Shown: positions 23,243 to 57,305 of the stretch, piece after piece
Position numbering within the stretch: the stretch's first letter is position 1
How the letters are laid out: each line of letters starts with the position of its first letter
Source of the DNA: Dictyostelium discoideum
Lineage: Eukaryota
Assembly (NCBI GenBank): GCA_000004695.1
Contig: CM000153.2
Coordinates: 2,880,001-2,944,000, forward strand
Reading direction: 5' to 3'
Length of the DNA: 64,000 nt
Position numbers and translations under genes: made by a program
Notes under the pieces: generated by a model
Databases searched by the model: none
What the model saw: only the letters and a program-made list of their open reading frames with translations
Told to the model about the DNA's origin: nothing

Positions 23243-23902
<660 letters not shown>

Positions 23903-24230: not shown

Positions 24231-24238
24231 TCCCATAA
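24231..24238 (+). promoter_or_regulatory. DUSE (Dictyostelium upstream sequence element, TCCCATAA) ~55–60 nt upstream of U3 copy A.
   Basis: Exact match to the [A/T]CCCA[C/T]AA consensus at the expected spacing upstream of the U3 start. Confidence 0.6.
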
Positions 24239-24290
24239 TTTATATATTATTAATGGTTAAAATAAAAGAAATGTTTTATTGAAATTTAAA

Positions 24291-24505
24291 AGTTATGACC
24301 AAACTCTTAGGATCATTTCTAGAGTATCGTCTATTAAAATTATTCATCAATAATTTTTCCTCTTTCACAGCTAGGATGATGATATACACTCACTACACGA
24401 AAGCGTGAAACCGTTATTATCGAATGATTCATTTATTCTTTATTAACATTGATGACCGTCTAATTCAGGGATGAATTGGTTGTGTGGTGGGATTCGTACT
24501 GGCTC
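24291..24505 (+). ncRNA. U3: U3 small nucleolar RNA (box C/D), copy A.
   Basis: 5' region …CTTAGGATCATTTCTAGAGTATCG is the U3 box A/A' (compare the human GGATCATTTCTATAGT). Also present: box C' GGATGATGA, box B-like AGCGTGAAACCG, box C TTGATGACC, and a 3' end followed by a T-run. Same 215-nt sequence in 4 copies. Confidence 0.75.
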
Positions 24506-24788
24506 TTTTTTAATTTAATTAATGAAAAAAAACCAAAATAATTTAAGTTTTTTATTTAATATTGTACTAAATAAAAAATATTTTTTATTATTTGTTTAAA
24601 ATTAAAATTCTTTGTTTGATAATTAAGAATTAAAAAAAGAATAGTTTCTTAACATTTTAAAATTAAAATTCATAAATAAACTATTAACTATTAATTATTG
24701 TTTATTTCCTTTAATGGATAAACACTGATTTATCAATATTTAAAAAATAAATAAAATAAAATAAAACTATTAAAATTTTGACTAAATT

Positions 24789-25080: not shown

Positions 25081-26497
<1,417 letters not shown>

Positions 26498-46921: not shown

Positions 46922-47112
46922 AATAACACCAACCATGTTAATCCAAACAAAAAAACAAAAAAAAAAAAAATATTTAAAAAAAAAAAATAAAAAAAAAAAT
47001 TAAAAATATCTATTTTCGTTCATTTTTTTCATTTCATTCGTTCGTTTTTTCATTTTATTTCGTTTTTTTATTTTTATTTTTATTTTTTTTTATCAAATTT
47101 CATTTTACAATA

Positions 47113-47120
47113 TCCCATAA
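47113..47120 (+). promoter_or_regulatory. DUSE upstream of U3 copy B.
   Basis: TCCCATAA about 55 nt upstream of the U3 start. Confidence 0.6.
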
Positions 47121-47172
47121 TCTGCAATGAAAATTGGGGTAAAATAAAAGAAATGTTTTATTGAAATTTAAA

Positions 47173-47387
47173 AGTTATGACCAAACTCTTAGGATCATTT
47201 CTAGAGTATCGTCTATTAAAATTATTCATCAATAATTTTTCCTCTTTCACAGCTAGGATGATGATATACACTCACTACACGAAAGCGTGAAACCGTTATT
47301 ATCGAATGATTCATTTATTCTTTATTAATATTGATGACCGTCTAATTCAGGGATGAATTGGTTGTGTGGTGGGATTCGTACTGGCTC
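47173..47387 (+). ncRNA. U3: U3 snoRNA, copy B.
   Basis: Same 215-nt sequence as copy A. Confidence 0.75.
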
Positions 47388-47540
47388 TTTTTTTAATTAA
47401 TTTAACGAAAAAAAAAAAATAAAAATTAGATATTTGTTAATAATTTTTTATTTTTTTTTTTTTATTTTTATTTTTTTTTTTTTTAATTATTATATTTTTT
47501 CTATGATATTAACAATTAGTATAAATTAAAATTAAATAAA

Positions 47541-48150
47541 ATGGGTAATTTTTTTTTTTTAAACAACAAGAAAAGGAAATTTCAATTGTTGTAGTAAACA
47601 AAGAAAGAGAACTTGATGTTTTTTTGGTATGTTTATTTTATTTTTTTCTAAATTTTTTTTTTCATAGCACTATATCGAAACTAATTACCAATTTATTATA
47701 TGTATAATATAGAACGTCTATGCAAATTCAAGTGATCAATTAATTGGTGAGAAAATTTACAAGAAAGGCGATATTGAAGAATTGGTTGGTACCAATAGTG
47801 GTCATTATTCAATTATCATTGATAGCAATGGTGAATCCGATGACGACCAACATCCAGTTGGTATTGAAACCCATTTGGTAATAAAGAGACCAAACATTTC
47901 CAATGAAACTGGTTTTGGTAGTTTCGCACATAGGAACTATAATTCAGATAAATTAATTAAAACAGTAAAAGTTGGTAAAGCACTTTTATTACATACAAAA
48001 GAATATGTTGAGGCTGATAATTGTAACAAATTTTTCATTCTTGTTAAACATTTTAATGATTTATTTTATAAATTCATTCAAGAACAATGTAGTGGTGACA
48101 TTTACTGGGTAGAAAGAATAATTGCCATAACTATGCAAGATTTTGCTTAG
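47541..48150 (+). CDS. LRAT/H-RAS-like suppressor (NlpC/P60 superfamily) small protein, copy 1. Exon 2 is 47713..48150. Exon 1 (47541..47626) is frame-ambiguous.
   Basis: GHYSIIID…THLVIK (His box) and EADNCNKFF (NCEHF-like catalytic Cys motif). Donor ttg|GTATGT at 47627, acceptor atatAG at 47712. A 12-T homopolymer puts the exon-1 ATG out of frame by 2 relative to copy 2. That is either a sequencing error or a real lesion. Confidence 0.5.
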
Positions 48151-48528
48151 AATATTTGCATTTATCATGGCCTGATTCTGTTGTATAACCAACCGATGAC
48201 TATCCATTTTTATTGGATGTTTTAAAAATCCAAAAATGTCCATCGATTGCAACAAACCAATCATAAAAATTTCCCTAAAACATTTGAGAAAAAATAAAAA
48301 AAAAAAAAAAAAAAAAAATAATAATAATAATAAATTATATTCTCATAGTAATTAATTAAATTAAAAATTAATTTATAACATGATTTTTAATAAAATTAAT
48401 TTTCATATCTTTTTTGAATAAATTATAGAATTTTTTACAATTAATAAAAAAGGCCAAAAACAGATAATTGTTATTTTGTTTTATTTTATATTATTTTTTT
48501 TTTTTACTTTAATATATTAAAAACCTAT

Positions 48529-50101
48529 TTAGTTGAATTCTTTTCCAAATACTTTTTCAAAGTAAGATATTAATGTATAATTATTAGATGATGATTGGTT
48601 TTTTAAAGTTTCTTCAAATATTTCTAGATTTGGTTTAAAATTTAAGTCTTTAATTATAAAATCAATAAAGTCAATATATCCATATTGAAAAGAAGTCTCG
48701 AATATACCTTCAAAACCGATTGTTGCAATTTCATCTTTATATTTTTTATAAATATTAAGGTTTCCATAAATTCGAGCAGCATTTTTAGTTACTGCAATTA
48801 ATTCAAAGAAAGGTCCATATGGTCGTGTTTGTTCATTTAGTTGTTGTTGTCTTGAATTTATTAAAAATTCAATTGTTGATATATCATTTTTTTTAACGAT
48901 TTCCAAAACTGTTTTAATCTCAACAAAATTTCCATATCTATTATATCCATTGTTTGAAAATATCATTTCTTTCATTTTATCAAATTGACCATTTAAATAA
49001 TAGCAAGTAAATAATCCTTCATTATCATCAGTTTTAATTTTATGGGGATAATTTTTTAAAATATGATATTTGTTTTCAACTTCTAGATAAATATATCTTA
49101 AACTTTCAATTTTACTATTTTCAATACAATCTATTAGTTTGTTTAAAGTTGATACTTGAATTTCTTTATATGGTTTTCTTGTAAATTGTTGGTCAATATA
49201 TTTTTTTAAATTAATATTATTTTTGAAATCATTAAAATTTTCAATCATAAAATTAATATCACATTTTAAAATTGAAATATTTTTTTGACTAGATAATAAT
49301 GTATATTGTTGATAATAATTATTTTTAAAATGGTTTGCAATTTTATAATTTGAAATTATTTGACCAAAACAAAATGATTTTTCAATTACAGTTGGTCCAG
49401 AAAGTTTTTCAAGTTGATTTTTAATATAATCAAACATCAATGGTGATTTAATTGATTCAATCACTGATGTATTACAAATTGGCGGAAGACTCTCAAATGC
49501 CATCTTAACCAACTCGATATCATCTGATAATATGACCTCTTTAATTAAGTCGATTTTAATATTTGGAATTGATTCAGAATAAATAGCTGGAATTTGTTCG
49601 ATTGCATCTTTATAATATTGATGAATTAATTCTTTTTGATTTTTAACAAAACGAAATTTACTATCTGAAAATTTACCAGTTTGTACTTCTTGAAATGGAT
49701 GTTTGTATTCAATTCTACCAAAAGAAGAAAATTTTTCAGGATAAAATATACCAAACATATTTGGATGAAGACATGAACTAGGTTGTGATTTTAAATCTTC
49801 ATTTGATATCATTTTGCTATTGTATTTAAATTTATGAAATAAAAAATTTTCAATTATACTTTCTTTTTTAAAAATGTGTATTATTGCCATTTCATAAATT
49901 GATTTAACTCTTTCATCATTTGGGTTGAATTCACCAATTGTTGTTGATAACTCTTGTTTTGTAAATGATTTTGAAATTTCATTTAGTTCATTTTGATTTT
50001 TAAAACTTTTAAAACTTTTAATTTCATTTATATATTTTATTACTTGGTTTTGATTATTTTTCATTTGATCATTCTTTGAAGGTAATATAAATGGATTGTT
50101 A

Positions 50102-50172
<71 letters not shown>

Positions 50173-50194
50173 TTTATTATCATTATTTTTATTA

Positions 50195-50273
<79 letters not shown>

Positions 50274-51348
50274 CATTATTATTATTATTTTTATTACTAC
50301 TATTGTTGTCGTCATTCAAAATTGACTTTAATTTTGGTTTATATGAATCACTAAAACAATTTAAATTATTTAACCTTAAAATTGTTTTACATAAATCTAT
50401 AATTGAAGATAAAGGATAAGAGAATGCATAAAGTTGAATACAAAGTTTTGTATTTTTTGAATTTAATGATTCATTTGGTGTTTCGTTGATAAATTGTGGT
50501 ATTTTAATCTTTTCAATTAAAAATTCAATCTTTTCATTAAAGTTATTATTATCTTTAGTGAAATAAATATTTTCAGGTGAAAATACAGTTTCAAACCATA
50601 TACTATTTAATTGCGATTCTGTAATATCATCATTTGATTTAAATAATTGATTGAAAATATATTGTGCAACTTTTAATGACCCAATTGCAATAGCATTTTT
50701 AAAAAAGTTAAATGATAATTTTTTACCATTTGAATAATAATAATATTCATTAATTACTTTCATCGATGCAACATTATCATAAACCAATGATAAATATTTA
50801 ATTTCTCTTAATGATTTTAATTTTTTATTTTTAATACCATCATCATTAATTTCTGTTGACAATGGTGGCAATTGAAAATATAATTTATAATTTTTAAATA
50901 AATTTTTAAAAAATTCTTCATCATCTTTGAAAACATTGAAAATTGATGATTTATAATAAACTCTTATTTTTTTAAATTTTTTAGCATCTAATTTATCTCT
51001 TGATAAATTTATAGGTAAATAAGTTTTATTTAAATCACCTCTCGAGTTTGAATCGGTTTGCTGATCATCTTCTGGTGAATTACTACTGAATATTAATTGT
51101 TCACCTCTGATAACTTTACATTTTAATAATTCTGTATAACCATTTTTTATCATCCATCCTACTCTAACAATTTCTTCATATCTATAAATCCCATTTCTAA
51201 ATTCTGATTTTAAACTTGTGAATATTAAATTTTTTATATATTTATTTCTAAAAACAGAAAAAAATAATTTTTCAATGTCATAATTATTATTATGATTATT
51301 ATTATTTTCAATCTTTAATTTTTTTTTATAACGAAATGGATCATCCAT
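48529..51348 (-). CDS. Hypothetical 939-aa protein, lineage-specific family, paralog A of the tandem pair.
   Basis: Intact ORF, ~85% identical to 53402..56143. (AAT)n-encoded poly-N insert present only in this copy. Confidence 0.6.
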
Positions 51349-51584
51349 TTATGATTTTGATTTCAAAAAAAAAAAAACAAAATTTTTTTTTTTTTTTTAA
51401 GATTTTTTTTTTTTTTTGATCAATAAAAAATAAATAATAAAGAAAAAAAAATCTTTTTAAAAAATAAAAAAAAAATGTAATAAAAACACAAAAAGAAAAT
51501 TTAATTTTAAACTTTTTTCTAAAAATTTTATACTTTTTTCTTTTTATTTTTTCGTTATTTTTTAATTTTTTTTTTAATTTTTAA

Positions 51585-51592
51585 TCCCATAA
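51585..51592 (+). promoter_or_regulatory. DUSE upstream of U3 copy C.
   Basis: TCCCATAA. Confidence 0.6.
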
Positions 51593-51643
51593 TTGTATTA
51601 ATTAATTGATATAAATAAAAGAAATGATTTATTGAAATTTAAA

Positions 51644-51858
51644 AGTTATGACCAAACTCTTAGGATCATTTCTAGAGTATCGTCTATTAAAATTATTCAT
51701 CAATAATTTTTCCTCTTTCACAGCTAGGATGATGATACACACTCACTACACGAAAGCGTGAAACCGTTATTATCGAATGATTCATTTATTCTTTATTAAT
51801 ATTGATGACCGTCTAATTCAGGGATGAATTGGTTGTGTGGTGGGATTCGTACTGGCTC
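51644..51858 (+). ncRNA. U3: U3 snoRNA, copy C.
   Basis: Same sequence as the other copies. Confidence 0.75.
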
Positions 51859-52276
51859 TTTTTTTAATTAATTTAATGAAACAAAAATAATTTTATAAAA
51901 AAATTGGTAAATCAGATTTCATCCAATAAAGGCAATAATTAATGATGTTATTTTATTAATAAAAATTATTATTTTCATTTTTTTTTTTTAAATTTTAAAT
52001 TAAATATAATAAAAAAAAACTAATTAATTTTTGATGATATTTCTTGATTTTTTTTTTATTTTGTGAAAATAAAATTAAAGGAAGTAAAAAAATAAATAAT
52101 TAAAAAAAAAAAAAAAATTTTTATATATTTTATTTTATTATTTTGACACATTTATATACACTTTTTTTTTTTTATAATATATTTTTTTTTTTTTTTAATA
52201 ATTTTTTTTTTTTTTTTTAGTTATTTTTTTTTTTTTTTCTGATGTTAATAATTAGTAAAAATTAAAATTAAATAAA

Positions 52277-52920
52277 ATGGGTAATTATTTTTTTAAACAA
52301 CAAGAAAAGGAAATGTCAATTGTTGTAGTAAACAAAGAAAGAGAACTTGATGTTTATTTGGTATGTTTATTTTATTTTTCAAAATTTTTTTTTTTTTCAC
52401 AGTACTATATTGAAACTAACTAATAATTTATTAATGTATAATACAGAACGTCTATGCAAATTCAAGTGATCAATTAATTGGTGAGAAAATTTACAAGAGA
52501 GGTGCTATCGAAGAATTAGTTGGTACAAATAGTGGTCATTATTCAATTGTCATTGATAGAAATGGTGAGTAGGATGACGACCAACATCCAGTTGGTATTG
52601 AAATCCATTTGGTAATGAAGAGACCATACATTTCCAATGAAACTGGTTTTGGTAGCGCCCCAAGAAACTATATTTCAGATAAATTAATTAAAACAGTAAA
52701 AGTTGGCAAAGCACTTTTATTACAAACAAAAGAATACGTCGAGGCTGATAATTTTAAAAAAGGTGTCATTCTTGGTCAACATTTCAATAATTTATTTTAT
52801 AAATTCATTCAAGAACAATGTAGTGGTGACATTTACTGGGGTAGAAAGAATAATTGCCATAACTATGCAAGATTTTGCTTAGAATATTTGCATTTATCAT
52901 GGCCTGATTCTGTTGTATAA
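52277..52920 (+). pseudogene. LRAT/NlpC-P60-like gene, copy 2, probably a pseudogene. Exon 1 is 52277..52360; exon 2 from 52447.
   Basis: Exon 1 is intact (MGNYFFKQQEKEMSIVVVNKERELDVYL). An in-frame TAG lies in exon 2 at ~52570 (GGTGAGTAG where copy 1 has GGTGAATCC). The catalytic Cys codon is lost (DNFKKG versus DNCNKF). The C-terminal frame differs from copy 1 by one G. Confidence 0.5.
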
Positions 52921-53401
52921 CCAACCGATGACTATCCATTTTTATTGGATGTTTTAAAAATCCAAAAATGTCCATCAATTGCAACAAACCAAACCTCTAA
53001 TCAAACAAATTAAAAAAACAATAAACTTTTATTCTTTATTATTATTTTTTTTTTTCATAAAATGATATCATTTATCATTAAATATAATAATATTATATTA
53101 TTTAATTTATTTTATTTATTTTAAAATCTTTTAAATGATGTTTAAGGTAGTTTTTCACACATTTTATATATGATTGTTTAAAGTTAAATAAAATTTTATT
53201 GGTATGGTGTTTGTATTTATTGTGTTTTTTTTTGCTTGTATGTGTGGAAACTCTGCCAACTAGGTTGGAACGAAAAATTTGAAATGGATCGAATTGAACA
53301 AGTTTTTTTAATATTCAAAAAAGGAATTAAAAAGTTTTGCCAGTATTAAAAAAGGCAAAAAACAGATAAATGACATTGTTATTTGTTTATTTAATACTAT
53401 T

Positions 53402-56143
53402 TTATTTTAATATTGAAAAACCTATTTGGTTGGGTTCTTTTCCAAATACTTTTTCAAAGTAAGATGTTAATGTATAATTATTAGATGATGATTGATTTTT
53501 TAAAGTTTCTTCAAATCTAGAAAGATTTGGTTCAAATTTTAAATCTTTAATTATAAAATCAATAATGTCAATATATCCATATTGAAAAGAAATATAGAAA
53601 TCACCTTCAAAATCCATTGTTTCAAAATAATCTTTAAGGTTTTTTAAAATATTAAGGTTTCCATAAATTCGAGCAGCATTTTTAAGTGCCCTAATTAATT
53701 CAATGAAAAGTTCTTTTGGTCTTGTTTGTTGTGTTTGATCATTTTGTTGTTGTAGTTGTTGTCTTGAATTTATTAAAAATTCAATTGTTGATATATCATT
53801 TCTTTTAACGATTTCAAAAATTGTATAAATTTCAACAAATCTAACACATCCATTTTCTGAAAATATCATTTCTTTCATTTTATCAAATTGACCATTTAAA
53901 TAATAGCAAGTAAATAATCCTTCATTATCATCAGTTTTAATTTTATGAGGATAATTTTTTAAAACATGATAATGGCATTCAACTTTTGGACAAATATATC
54001 TTAAACTTTCAATTTTACTATTTTCAATACAATCTATTAATTTATTTAAAGTTGAAACTTGAATTTCTTCATTTGATTTTCTTGTAAATTGTTGACCAAT
54101 GTATGTATTTAAATTAATATTATTTTTGAAATCATTAAAATTTTCAATCATAAAATTAATATCACATTTTGAAATTGAAATATTTTCTTGACCAGAAAAT
54201 AATGAATATTGTTGATAATAATAATTTTTAAAATGGTTTGCAATTTTATAATTTGAAATGATTTGATCGAAACAAAGTGAATTTTCAGTTGGTTTAGAAA
54301 GTTTTTCAAGTTGATTTTTAATATAATCAAACATCAATGGTGATTTAATTGATTCAATCACTGATGTATTAAAATTTAGTGGATGAAGACTCTCAAATAC
54401 CATCTTAACCAACTCAATATCATCTGATAATATGACCTCTTTAATTAAGTCTATTTTAATATTACCAGAAAAGTGAGCTGGAATTTGTTCGATTGCATCT
54501 TTATAATATTGATGAATTAATTCTTTTTGATTTTTAACAAAACAAAATTTACTATCTGGAAATTTACCAATTTGTACTTTTTCAAATGGATTTTTATAAT
54601 CAATTTTAGCAAAAGAAGAAAATTTTTCAATTTGTATTTTTTCATGATTTTTATAATCACTACTAATAAAAGCAAAAGGTGAAGAAATTTTTTCAAGATA
54701 AAATATACCAAACATATTTGGATGAAGACATGAACTAGGTTGTGATTTTAAATCTTCATTTGATATCATTTTGCTATTGTATTTAAATTTATGAAATAAA
54801 AAATTTTCAATTATACTTTCTTTTTTAAAAATGTGTATTATTGCCATTTCATAAATTTTTTTAACTCTTTTATCATTTGACTTGAATTCACCGATTTTTG
54901 TTGATAACTCTTGTTCTGTAAATGATTTTGAAATTTTATTTAATTCATCTAGATTTTTAAAACTTTTAAAACTTTTAATTTCATTTATATATTTTATTAC
55001 TTGGTTTTGATTATTTTTCATTTGATCATTTTTTAAAGATAATGTAAATGGATTGTTATTTTTATTATTATTATTATTACTATTGTTGTCATTCAAAATT
55101 GATTCCAGTTTTGATTTATATGAATCATTATTTAAAATATTTAGTAGTAAAATTGTTTTACATAAACCTATTATTAAAGATAAAGGATAAGAGAATGCAT
55201 AAAGTTGAATACAAAGTTTTGTATTTTTTGAATTTAATGATTCATTTGGTGTTTCGTTGATAAATTGTGGTATTTTAATTTCTTCAATTAAAAATTCAAT
55301 CTTTTCATTAAAATTATTATTATCTTTAGTGAAATAAATATTTTCAGGTACAAATACGGTTTCAGACCATATACTATTTAATTGTGATTCTGTAATTTCA
55401 TCATTTGATTTAAATAATTGATTGAAAATATATTGTGCAACTTTTAATGACCCAATTGCAATAGCATTTTTAAAAAAGTTGAATGATAACTTTTTACCAT
55501 TTGAATAATAATAATATTCATTAATTACTTTAATTGATGCCACATTATCATAAACCAATGACAAATATTTAATTTCTCTTAATGATTTTAATTTTTTATT
55601 TTTAATACCATCATCGTCATCATTGTCATCATCATTAATTTCTTTTTCTTGATTTTTTTGATTTTGTTCTGGTAATTGAAAATATAATTTATAATTTTTA
55701 AATAAATTTTTAAAAAATTCTTCATCATCTTTGAAAACATTGAAAATTGATGATTTATAATAAACTCTTTTTTTTTTAAATTTTTTAACATCTAATTTAT
55801 CTCTTGATAAATTTATAGGTAAATAAGTGTTATCGAAATCACCTCTCAATTTTGAATCATAATAAGTTTGTGGACCATCTTCTGGTGAATTACTACTGAA
55901 TATTAATTGTTCACCTCTGATAACTTTACATTTTAATAATTCTGTATAACCATTTTTTATCATCCATCCCACTCTAACAATTTCTTCATATCTATAAATC
56001 CCATTTCTAAATTCTGATTTTAAACTTGTGAATATTAAATTTTTTATATATTTATTTCTAAAAACAGAAAAAAATAATTTTTCAATATTGTTATTATTAT
56101 TTTCAATTTTTAATTTTTTTTTATAACGAAATGGATCATCCAT
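53402..56143 (-). CDS. Hypothetical 913-aa protein, paralog B of the tandem pair.
   Basis: Intact ORF, collinear with 48529..51348. Confidence 0.6.
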   Translation of the reverse strand: MDDPFRYKKKLKIENNNNNIEKLFFSVFRNKYIKNLIFTSLKSEFRNGIYRYEEIVRVGWMIKNGYTELLKCKVIRGEQLIFSSNSPEDGPQTYYDSKLRGDFDNTYLPINLSRDKLDVKKFKKKRVYYKSSIFNVFKDDEEFFKNLFKNYKLYFQLPEQNQKNQEKEINDDDNDDDDGIKNKKLKSLREIKYLSLVYDNVASIKVINEYYYYSNGKKLSFNFFKNAIAIGSLKVAQYIFNQLFKSNDEITESQLNSIWSETVFVPENIYFTKDNNNFNEKIEFLIEEIKIPQFINETPNESLNSKNTKLCIQLYAFSYPLSLIIGLCKTILLLNILNNDSYKSKLESILNDNNSNNNNNKNNNPFTLSLKNDQMKNNQNQVIKYINEIKSFKSFKNLDELNKISKSFTEQELSTKIGEFKSNDKRVKKIYEMAIIHIFKKESIIENFLFHKFKYNSKMISNEDLKSQPSSCLHPNMFGIFYLEKISSPFAFISSDYKNHEKIQIEKFSSFAKIDYKNPFEKVQIGKFPDSKFCFVKNQKELIHQYYKDAIEQIPAHFSGNIKIDLIKEVILSDDIELVKMVFESLHPLNFNTSVIESIKSPLMFDYIKNQLEKLSKPTENSLCFDQIISNYKIANHFKNYYYQQYSLFSGQENISISKCDINFMIENFNDFKNNINLNTYIGQQFTRKSNEEIQVSTLNKLIDCIENSKIESLRYICPKVECHYHVLKNYPHKIKTDDNEGLFTCYYLNGQFDKMKEMIFSENGCVRFVEIYTIFEIVKRNDISTIEFLINSRQQLQQQNDQTQQTRPKELFIELIRALKNAARIYGNLNILKNLKDYFETMDFEGDFYISFQYGYIDIIDFIIKDLKFEPNLSRFEETLKNQSSSNNYTLTSYFEKVFGKEPNQIGFSILK

Positions 56144-56363
56144 TTATGATTTATTAATAATTTAAAAAAAAAAAAAAAAAAAACAATAAAAAAAAAAAAC
56201 TTTTTTAATAAAAAAAACTTAATTTAATAAAGAAAAAAAAAAATAAAGAAATAATAAAGAAAAAAAACCCTTAATTTGAAAAAAAAAAAAATTTTAAAAA
56301 AAAAAAAAAAAAAATGGAGGGAAAAAAATTAGGTTTTCATTTTTTTTTTTTTTTTTTTTTTAA

Positions 56364-56371
56364 TCCCATAA
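56364..56371 (+). promoter_or_regulatory. DUSE upstream of U3 copy D.
   Basis: TCCCATAA. Confidence 0.6.
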
Positions 56372-56422
56372 TTTCTTTAATTAATTTATATAAATAAAAC
56401 AAATGTTTTATTGAAATTTAAA

Positions 56423-56637
56423 AGTTATGACCAAACTCTTAGGATCATTTCTAGAGTATCGTCTATTAAAATTATTCATCAATAATTTTTCCTCTTTCAC
56501 AGCTAGGATGATGATACACACTCACTACACGAAAGCGTGAAACCGTTATTATCGAATGATTCATTTATTCTTTATTAACATTGATGACCGTCTAATTCAG
56601 GGATGAATTGGTTGTGTGGTGGGATTCGTACTGGCTC
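56423..56637 (+). ncRNA. U3: U3 snoRNA, copy D.
   Basis: Same sequence as the other copies. Confidence 0.75.
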
Positions 56638-57305
56638 TTTTTTTAATTAATTTAATGAAAAAAAAAATGAATTTAAAATTCTTTAACCAATAAACCAGAT
56701 TTTATTCTTTTAAGGCAATAAAAATTTAATTATTTTTTTAAATGGTTCCTGATTAATACATATTAAAAAAAAAAAAAAAAAAAAAAAAATTATAATTATT
56801 ATATCATATAAATAATTTTTTTTTTTTTTTTTTTTTTTAATTTAAATAATTTCAATTATCATGATATTTAATTTTAAATTTTTTTTTTTTATTATTTTAT
56901 TTTTTTACTTCCATTAATTTTAATTTCAACAAAACAAAGCAAAACCAAAAATAGACGAAAAGAAATCACACAAATTTGTGTTTATAAAAAAAAAAAATAA
57001 AAAAAAAAAAATCTTTTTTATTTTTATTTTTTATTTTTTAATTTTTTTTAAAAAAAAATTTTAAATTTTTCAGACGAGCATTTTTGACTCATCTATTTTT
57101 TTTTTATTTTTTTTAAAATTTAATTTTTTTTTTTTTTTCCCTTTTCTTTTTTTTTTCTTTTATTAATTATTTATTGTGTTTCATTGTTTATAACAATACC
57201 AATATAAAATTTAAATAATAATAATAATAATAGTAATATAAATAAAATTAAAATAGAGAATAAGATTAGACTGTAAAATAAAACAATAAAAAAAAAGAAG
57301 AAATC

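Follow-up and report, generated by a model that had tools for sequence, protein, structure and literature searches.

Four U3 snoRNA loci with a DUSE at fixed upstream distance in a 64-kb window of the Dictyostelium discoideum genome

U3 snoRNA is needed by every eukaryote to make the small ribosomal subunit. In the 64,000-nt window of D. discoideum DNA analysed here, which has an overall G+C content of 21%, an element of about 210 nt occurs four times, and the question it raises is whether these four loci are functional U3 genes, each with its own promoter, or copies of a generic repeat. The Rfam covariance model of U3 (RF00012), which had been proposed beforehand as a check, yields full-length matches (model positions 1-219) at all four loci, i.e. 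at 24295-24503, 47177-47385, 51648-51856 and 56427-56635 on the plus strand, with 85.8-89.1 bits at a gathering score of 34 and with E-values of about 1e-17 to 1e-18, and thus scores each of them well above threshold. No Rfam family beyond these four U3 matches was detected in the entire 64 kb, and no tRNA genes were found in the window. Furthermore, the 16-mer GGATCATTTCTAGAGT is present exactly four times in the window, always on the plus strand (at 24310, 47192, 51663 and 56442), with a chance expectation of 0.03. Model matches and 16-mer count together bear out the original prediction of four U3 elements of about 210 nt at these places on the plus strand. Its length of 215 nt, however, has to be corrected, since U3 comprises 209 nt under the covariance model and 210 nt in GenBank V00190, of which nucleotides 62-271 are cited as D. 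discoideum U3. The loci are referred to below as copy A (24295-24504; 89.1 bits), copy B (47177-47386; 86.1 bits), copy C (51648-51857; 85.8 bits) and copy D (56427-56636; 88.6 bits), all on the plus strand. Judged by their sequence features, they are very probably functional, independently transcribed U3 snoRNA genes of D. discoideum, with an RNA product that has historically been termed D2.

The D2/U3 multigene family of D. discoideum was described by Wise and Weiner (Cell 1980), with the sequence deposited as GenBank V00190. The loci in the window agree with these genes in organism, length (about 210 nt), U3 boxes and multigene organization, and by size, boxes and multigene nature they are members of the D2/U3 family. 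Three of the supposedly 'dispersed' genes form a local tandem array in the window (see below).

Both the conserved boxes and the fold are those of U3. In the alignment to the RF00012 consensus, the boxes GAC and A'/A (AUGACC...ACUCUUAGGAUCAUUUCUAGAGU) are placed with high posterior probability, and these 5' domain boxes are invariant in nine of ten dictyostelid U3 sequences. Boxes C', B and C are present as GAUGAUGA, AGCGUGAA and UUGAUGACCGU and between them provide the B/C motif plus the 5' half of the C'/D motif; none of the boxes originally predicted (A/A', C', B and C) is missing. Folding of the single sequence gives a U3 architecture (z = -2.5), and the consensus fold of the ten dictyostelid U3 sequences contains 67 pairs, with compensatory double changes at 13 of them.

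It is box D, not mentioned in the original prediction, that departs from the canonical CUGA of the C'/D motif in RF00012, as a lineage variant of this one box. At 24493-24499 in copy A and at the same place in copies B-D, box D reads CGUA, a reading shared by the three sister species D. firmibasis, D. citrinum and D. dimigraforme, while the D. purpureum box (L019:9627-9633) is CUUA; none of these species has the otherwise near-universal CUGA, which is near-perfect in 310 fungal U3 sequences. Within the dictyostelid C'/D motif, the first sheared G.A pair persists, A-U takes the place of the second, and the pair adjoining this A-U covaries between D. discoideum and D. purpureum (U.G versus A-U). 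The alignment of box D is secured by the six-base-pair terminal stem with its compensatory changes and by this U.G to A-U switch, and box D is therefore a real lineage-specific C'/D variant and not a misalignment. Having no CUGA in box D also means that this C'/D motif is not a textbook kink-turn. Membership in U3 is unaffected, because the sequence is that of the published U3 of D. discoideum.

By analogy to established U3 biology, the RNAs encoded in the window would act in the earliest steps of ribosome production. Their 5' domain (GAC, A' and A) would base-pair both with the small-subunit rRNA, at its 5' end, and with the 5' external transcribed spacer, and would be followed by hinges and by a 3' domain carrying the B/C and C'/D protein-binding motifs. 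This 3' domain would bind Snu13, Nop56/58, fibrillarin and Rrp9. As a component of the small-subunit processome, U3 is expected to chaperone the early pre-rRNA cleavages by which the small-subunit rRNA is set free. As regards the predicted rRNA pairing, nucleotides 14-21 (UAGGAUCA) are complementary to UGAUCCUG in the universal 5' end of small-subunit rRNA, which was used here in place of the D. discoideum sequence; the putative duplex has an energy of -20.9 kcal/mol, matched by 13 of 500 shuffles. Several gene copies may serve the supply of an abundant RNA.

If the four loci are genes of their own, their flanks should tell how they are transcribed. Upstream of each copy lies the sequence TCCCATAA, the DUSE, on the plus strand. 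Measured from its first base to the beginning of the U3 model match, it is situated 64 nt upstream of the RNA start of copies A (24231-24238) and B (47113-47120) and 63 nt upstream of that of copies C (51585-51592) and D (56364-56371). Thus, the DUSE originally predicted is present in all four copies, with the distance revised from approximately 55-60 nt to 63-64 nt; measured to the start assumed in the original prediction (24291), the DUSE of copy A is found 60 nt upstream. The published DUSE is [AT]CCCA[AT]AA at about 63 bp upstream, or about 60 nt from the start site, and the spacing observed here is in this sense canonical. DUSE was defined in 2004-2006 by the Soderbom laboratory (Aspegren 2004, Hinas 2006), with later confirmation in D. 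purpureum and across Dictyostelia (Sucgang 2011, Kjellin 2021). Among the papers searched, none named both DUSE and U3 or explicitly placed U3 among the DUSE genes.

What makes the DUSE of these genes convincing is its fixed position and its conservation across species, i.e. positional and comparative evidence, and not over-representation. TCCCATAA occurs five times in the window as compared with 3.55 times expected, which is not above chance, and the degenerate WCCCAWAA shows no enrichment there either (15 versus 21 expected); AAAAGTTATGA with one mismatch is no more than weakly enriched. By contrast, six further U3 genes from four species also have a DUSE 63-64 nt upstream, including the U3 gene of D. 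purpureum with ACCCATAA at -63, and in an alignment of ten sequences CCCATAA is invariant, whereas the neighbouring columns vary. The same alignment shows two further elements to be conserved at least within the D. discoideum group, namely a TATA-like block (AAATAAAAGA at 24260-24269, plus strand, in copy A), which is located at about -35 to -26 and may serve as a TATA-type promoter element, and AAAAGTT, which directly precedes +1 of the RNA (starting with AUGACC...). Each of the six WCCCATAA sites in the window is followed, at a distance of 63-64 nt, by the start of a conserved RNA gene. The notion that DUSE can be used as a landmark for RNA starts holds accordingly for the combination of DUSE, spacing and start context.

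DUSE is reported to serve genes transcribed by RNA polymerase II as well as by RNA polymerase III. At the other end of the gene, a TAA[ATC]GAAA block followed by A's is found at +17 to +20 in ten out of ten U3 genes from five species. In copy A, this conserved 3' block reads TAATGAAAAAAA (24520-24531, plus strand, beginning at +17) and is a candidate signal for 3'-end formation; in copies B, C and D it is located at 47403-47416, 51874-51880 and 56653-56666, respectively. The 3' T-run of the original prediction is present in D. discoideum but does not hold up as a conserved 3' signal, the TAATGAAAAAA block being conserved instead. A run of 5-7 Ts begins 2-4 nt past the U3 3' end in D. discoideum (6-7 Ts), D. 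firmibasis and D. citrinum, is down to TT in D. dimigraforme, and is replaced by ATAAACTTATTTTA in D. purpureum, where four Ts begin only about 10 nt downstream. 3'-end formation may thus be directed by the downstream TAATGAAAAAA block, 17-20 nt past the U3 3' end.

The same genes could also be read as polymerase III genes, with DUSE and TATA-like box forming an external promoter and the T-run acting as terminator. This would be in keeping with the 5-7 Ts that follow soon after the 3' end in three of the species, with DUSE being used by polymerase III genes too, and with U3 being transcribed by polymerase III in plants, trypanosomatids and another protist. It fits poorly, however, with a T-run that has shrunk to TT in D. 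dimigraforme and given way to ATAAACTTATTTTA in D. purpureum, while TAA[ATC]GAAA at +17 to +20 is what all ten genes have kept. Furthermore, D2 RNA has been reported to carry a trimethylguanosine cap, a feature that would speak for polymerase II. We consider transcription by polymerase III possible but rather unlikely. From the conservation pattern at the 3' end and the cap reported for D2, we lean towards RNA polymerase II as the enzyme transcribing these U3 genes, in combination with a 3'-box-like signal, which appears somewhat more probable than not.

The U3 genes in the window can be compared with several better-known types of small-RNA genes. Like the DUSE-type small-RNA genes of Dictyostelia (snRNAs, Class I/II RNAs), which are often paired or clustered and in which DUSE is conserved in D. 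purpureum, they have DUSE about 60-63 nt upstream, but they do not have the TGTG box. Plant U3 genes, which are transcribed by polymerase III from a USE and a TATA box, likewise combine an upstream element with a TATA-like box at fixed spacing, and as in Dictyostelium U3 is encoded there by independent genes forming a multigene family; the upstream motif is different, however, and plant U3 genes end at a T-run, whereas the T-run in Dictyostelium is not conserved across species. Vertebrate U3 and snRNA genes (DSE/PSE, 3' box, polymerase II) also have an external promoter, and the conserved block shortly past the mature 3' end in the window is a candidate counterpart of their 3' box, although the sequences of the elements are unrelated.

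The start context of U3 recurs in a pair of other DUSE-driven genes, here called RNA X, which is encoded on the minus strand (34964 to about 34790 and 35583 to about 35410) with DUSE 63-64 nt upstream (35028-35021 and 35646-35639, respectively). The two copies are identical over about 200 nt and begin with the same AAAGTT/ATGA context as U3 (AUGAAAAGAUCUUGCAUUCGGAUUUCAAUCCG...). The pair is syntenic in D. firmibasis (L020, 2785 to 2606 and 3964 to 3769) with 89-92% identity; at the equivalent spot in D. purpureum, upstream of the Gig2-like gene, a U3 gene is found instead. RNA X has no Rfam match at E<=1 and no sequence match in the literature searched. Three possible identities were rejected, i.e. 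that of a box C/D snoRNA, because D. firmibasis has not kept the CUGA motifs, that of a small protein, because an indel disrupts the 33-codon ORF in the same species, and that of one of the box C/D snoRNAs of Diesend 2022, because the supplement of that study contains no sequence match. Two further observations concern the 3' side of these genes. TTAAATATAAAAAAA, which is similar to the U3 3' block, follows the RNA X genes as a candidate 3' box. In addition, directly downstream of the second RNA X gene, at approximately 35380-35325 on the minus strand, there is a partial and degenerate third copy of the 3' part of RNA X (TCTCTTATAAGAGTCAGGTACTATTCACTACGGCC...), probably a decayed duplicate.

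How did D. discoideum come to have four U3 genes within such a short distance? Copy A stands by itself, as originally predicted, between a small gene of 219 aa (23243-23902, minus strand, no Pfam match) and a MOCS1-type gene starting at 25081, with the positions as well as the Pfam domains of the latter (Radical_SAM, Mob_synth_C and MoaC) in agreement; farther upstream lies the STT3 gene, whose protein clusters with a member from D. discoideum AX4 (XP_639887.1). Copy B begins 256 nt past the stop codon of an SNF2-type gene and copy D is located upstream of a VMP1-type gene. Copies B, C and D are all part of a tandem segmental duplication (46945-56741) that self-BLAST reveals with 84-91% identity. 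The two units of about 4.5-4.8 kb each (46945-51428 and 51428-56741) both consist of a U3 gene, a short ORF on the plus strand (47782-48150 and 52609-52920) and a long ORF of 913-939 aa on the minus strand (48529-51348 and, with 913 aa, 53402-56143), for which Pfam gave no family; at the end of the array stands a third U3 gene. An exact match to the 913-aa ORF is present on record CM142510.1 (5.58 Mb) of assembly GCA_054883475.1, and exact-protein searches with two other ORFs of the window gave no match. The distance is 4471 bp from B to C and 4779 bp from C to D. Copies B, C and D are thus not independent insertions, and of the dispersal originally predicted only that of copy A remains, while the other three copies lie within one tandem duplication.

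The history of these loci can be followed in other dictyostelids, using the sequence around the orthologues of STT3, SNF2 and the Gig2-like gene as orthologous loci. A U3 gene is present at the position of copy A in three sister species, i.e. D. firmibasis (L002:14485-14692), D. citrinum (L003:14458-14667) and D. dimigraforme (L004:15223-15431). D. firmibasis also has U3 genes at the positions of copy B (L020:15340-15547) and copy D (L020:17082-17289), only 1.7 kb apart, and in its SNF2-VMP1 interval the 913/939-aa units are absent and a 233-aa CMS1/DEAD-like gene is found instead. Copy C and the large units therefore represent a duplication that D. firmibasis lacks. In D. purpureum, a U3 gene (L019:9429-9637, 86 bits) lies beside the Gig2-like gene, but none was found at the STT3 locus, and the synteny of copy A thus ends short of this species. 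A metagenome scan with ACTNNNAGGATCATTTCTNNAGT returned 13 loci with a single U3 gene (L016), which is GC-rich, not of dictyostelid origin and of no use for this comparison.

Although the four copies had been taken to be identical, they differ over their 209 nt at two C/T sites, 91 and 153, and represent four distinct haplotypes, i.e. T91/C153 in copy A, T91/T153 in B, C91/T153 in C and C91/C153 in D. The haplotype of copy D is the ancestral one, since C is present at both sites in all other species examined. Both variable sites look harmless: site 153 turns a G-C into a G-U pair in the B/C hairpin, and site 91 is located within a stretch that varies between species. One might nevertheless suspect some copies, e.g. 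A, B and C with their derived haplotypes, of being silent or pseudogenes, with a single locus supplying U3, as multigene families of small RNAs often contain pseudogenes and copy C owes its presence only to a lineage-specific duplication. This seems improbable, however, since DUSE, TATA-like block, start context and 3' block are intact in four out of four copies, whereas the spacers between these elements have diverged. Moreover, there are neither truncations nor indels in any of the four, the two substitutions preserve structure (G-C to G-U) or fall into a variable loop, and copies A, B and D have their counterparts at the same positions in D. firmibasis. With a DUSE that is invariant while its flanks vary, with A, B and D being syntenic and with variable sites that look harmless, we infer that all four copies are functional rather than dead.

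The near-identity of the copies is itself in need of an explanation. Within D. discoideum, and likewise within D. firmibasis, the identity among U3 paralogues amounts to 99-100%, whereas between the two species it is 92-94% irrespective of positional orthology, and the D. firmibasis copies have more than ten species-specific changes in common, some of which are located in the immediate 3' flank. Together with the conserved positions of A, B and D, this pattern of identity argues for homogenization of loci separated by as much as about 32 kb, which would most simply occur by gene conversion. The four haplotypes at only two sites fit gene conversion as well, with recurrent C/T transitions as an alternative, and selection by itself might account for part of the identity within species. 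Thus, the U3 copies may be held nearly identical by purifying selection in combination with gene conversion between loci.

That the element is just a generic dispersed repeat or mobile-element fragment merely resembling U3, as its multicopy nature in an AT-rich, repeat-rich genome and the location of three copies within a larger duplicated block might suggest, is effectively refuted by a covariance-model score 50 bits over threshold along the full model, by compensatory covariation in the U3 fold and by synteny kept across species, with neither terminal repeats nor transposase-like ORFs being present and the 913-939-aa ORFs having no Pfam match, and we accord it practically no probability.

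U3 genes and DUSE are both already known, and the identification of the four loci as such does not bring new biology. Beyond this core, there are three features of dictyostelid U3 that were not found described in the literature searched, namely a TAATGAAAAAA block acting as 3'-end signal, a C'/D motif without CUGA throughout the group 4 dictyostelids and gene conversion across more than 20 kb; that all three hold together is a tentative suggestion. For annotation, our analysis calls for annotating the four loci as U3 snoRNA genes instead of as a repeat, and DUSE in combination with its spacing and the start context provides a reliable landmark of small-RNA genes in the D. discoideum genome. 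If the suggested role of the 3' block is true, DUSE, TATA-like box, AAAGTT/ATGA start and TAATGAAAAAA block would together constitute a polymerase II snRNA-type gene architecture with a 3' box of its own.
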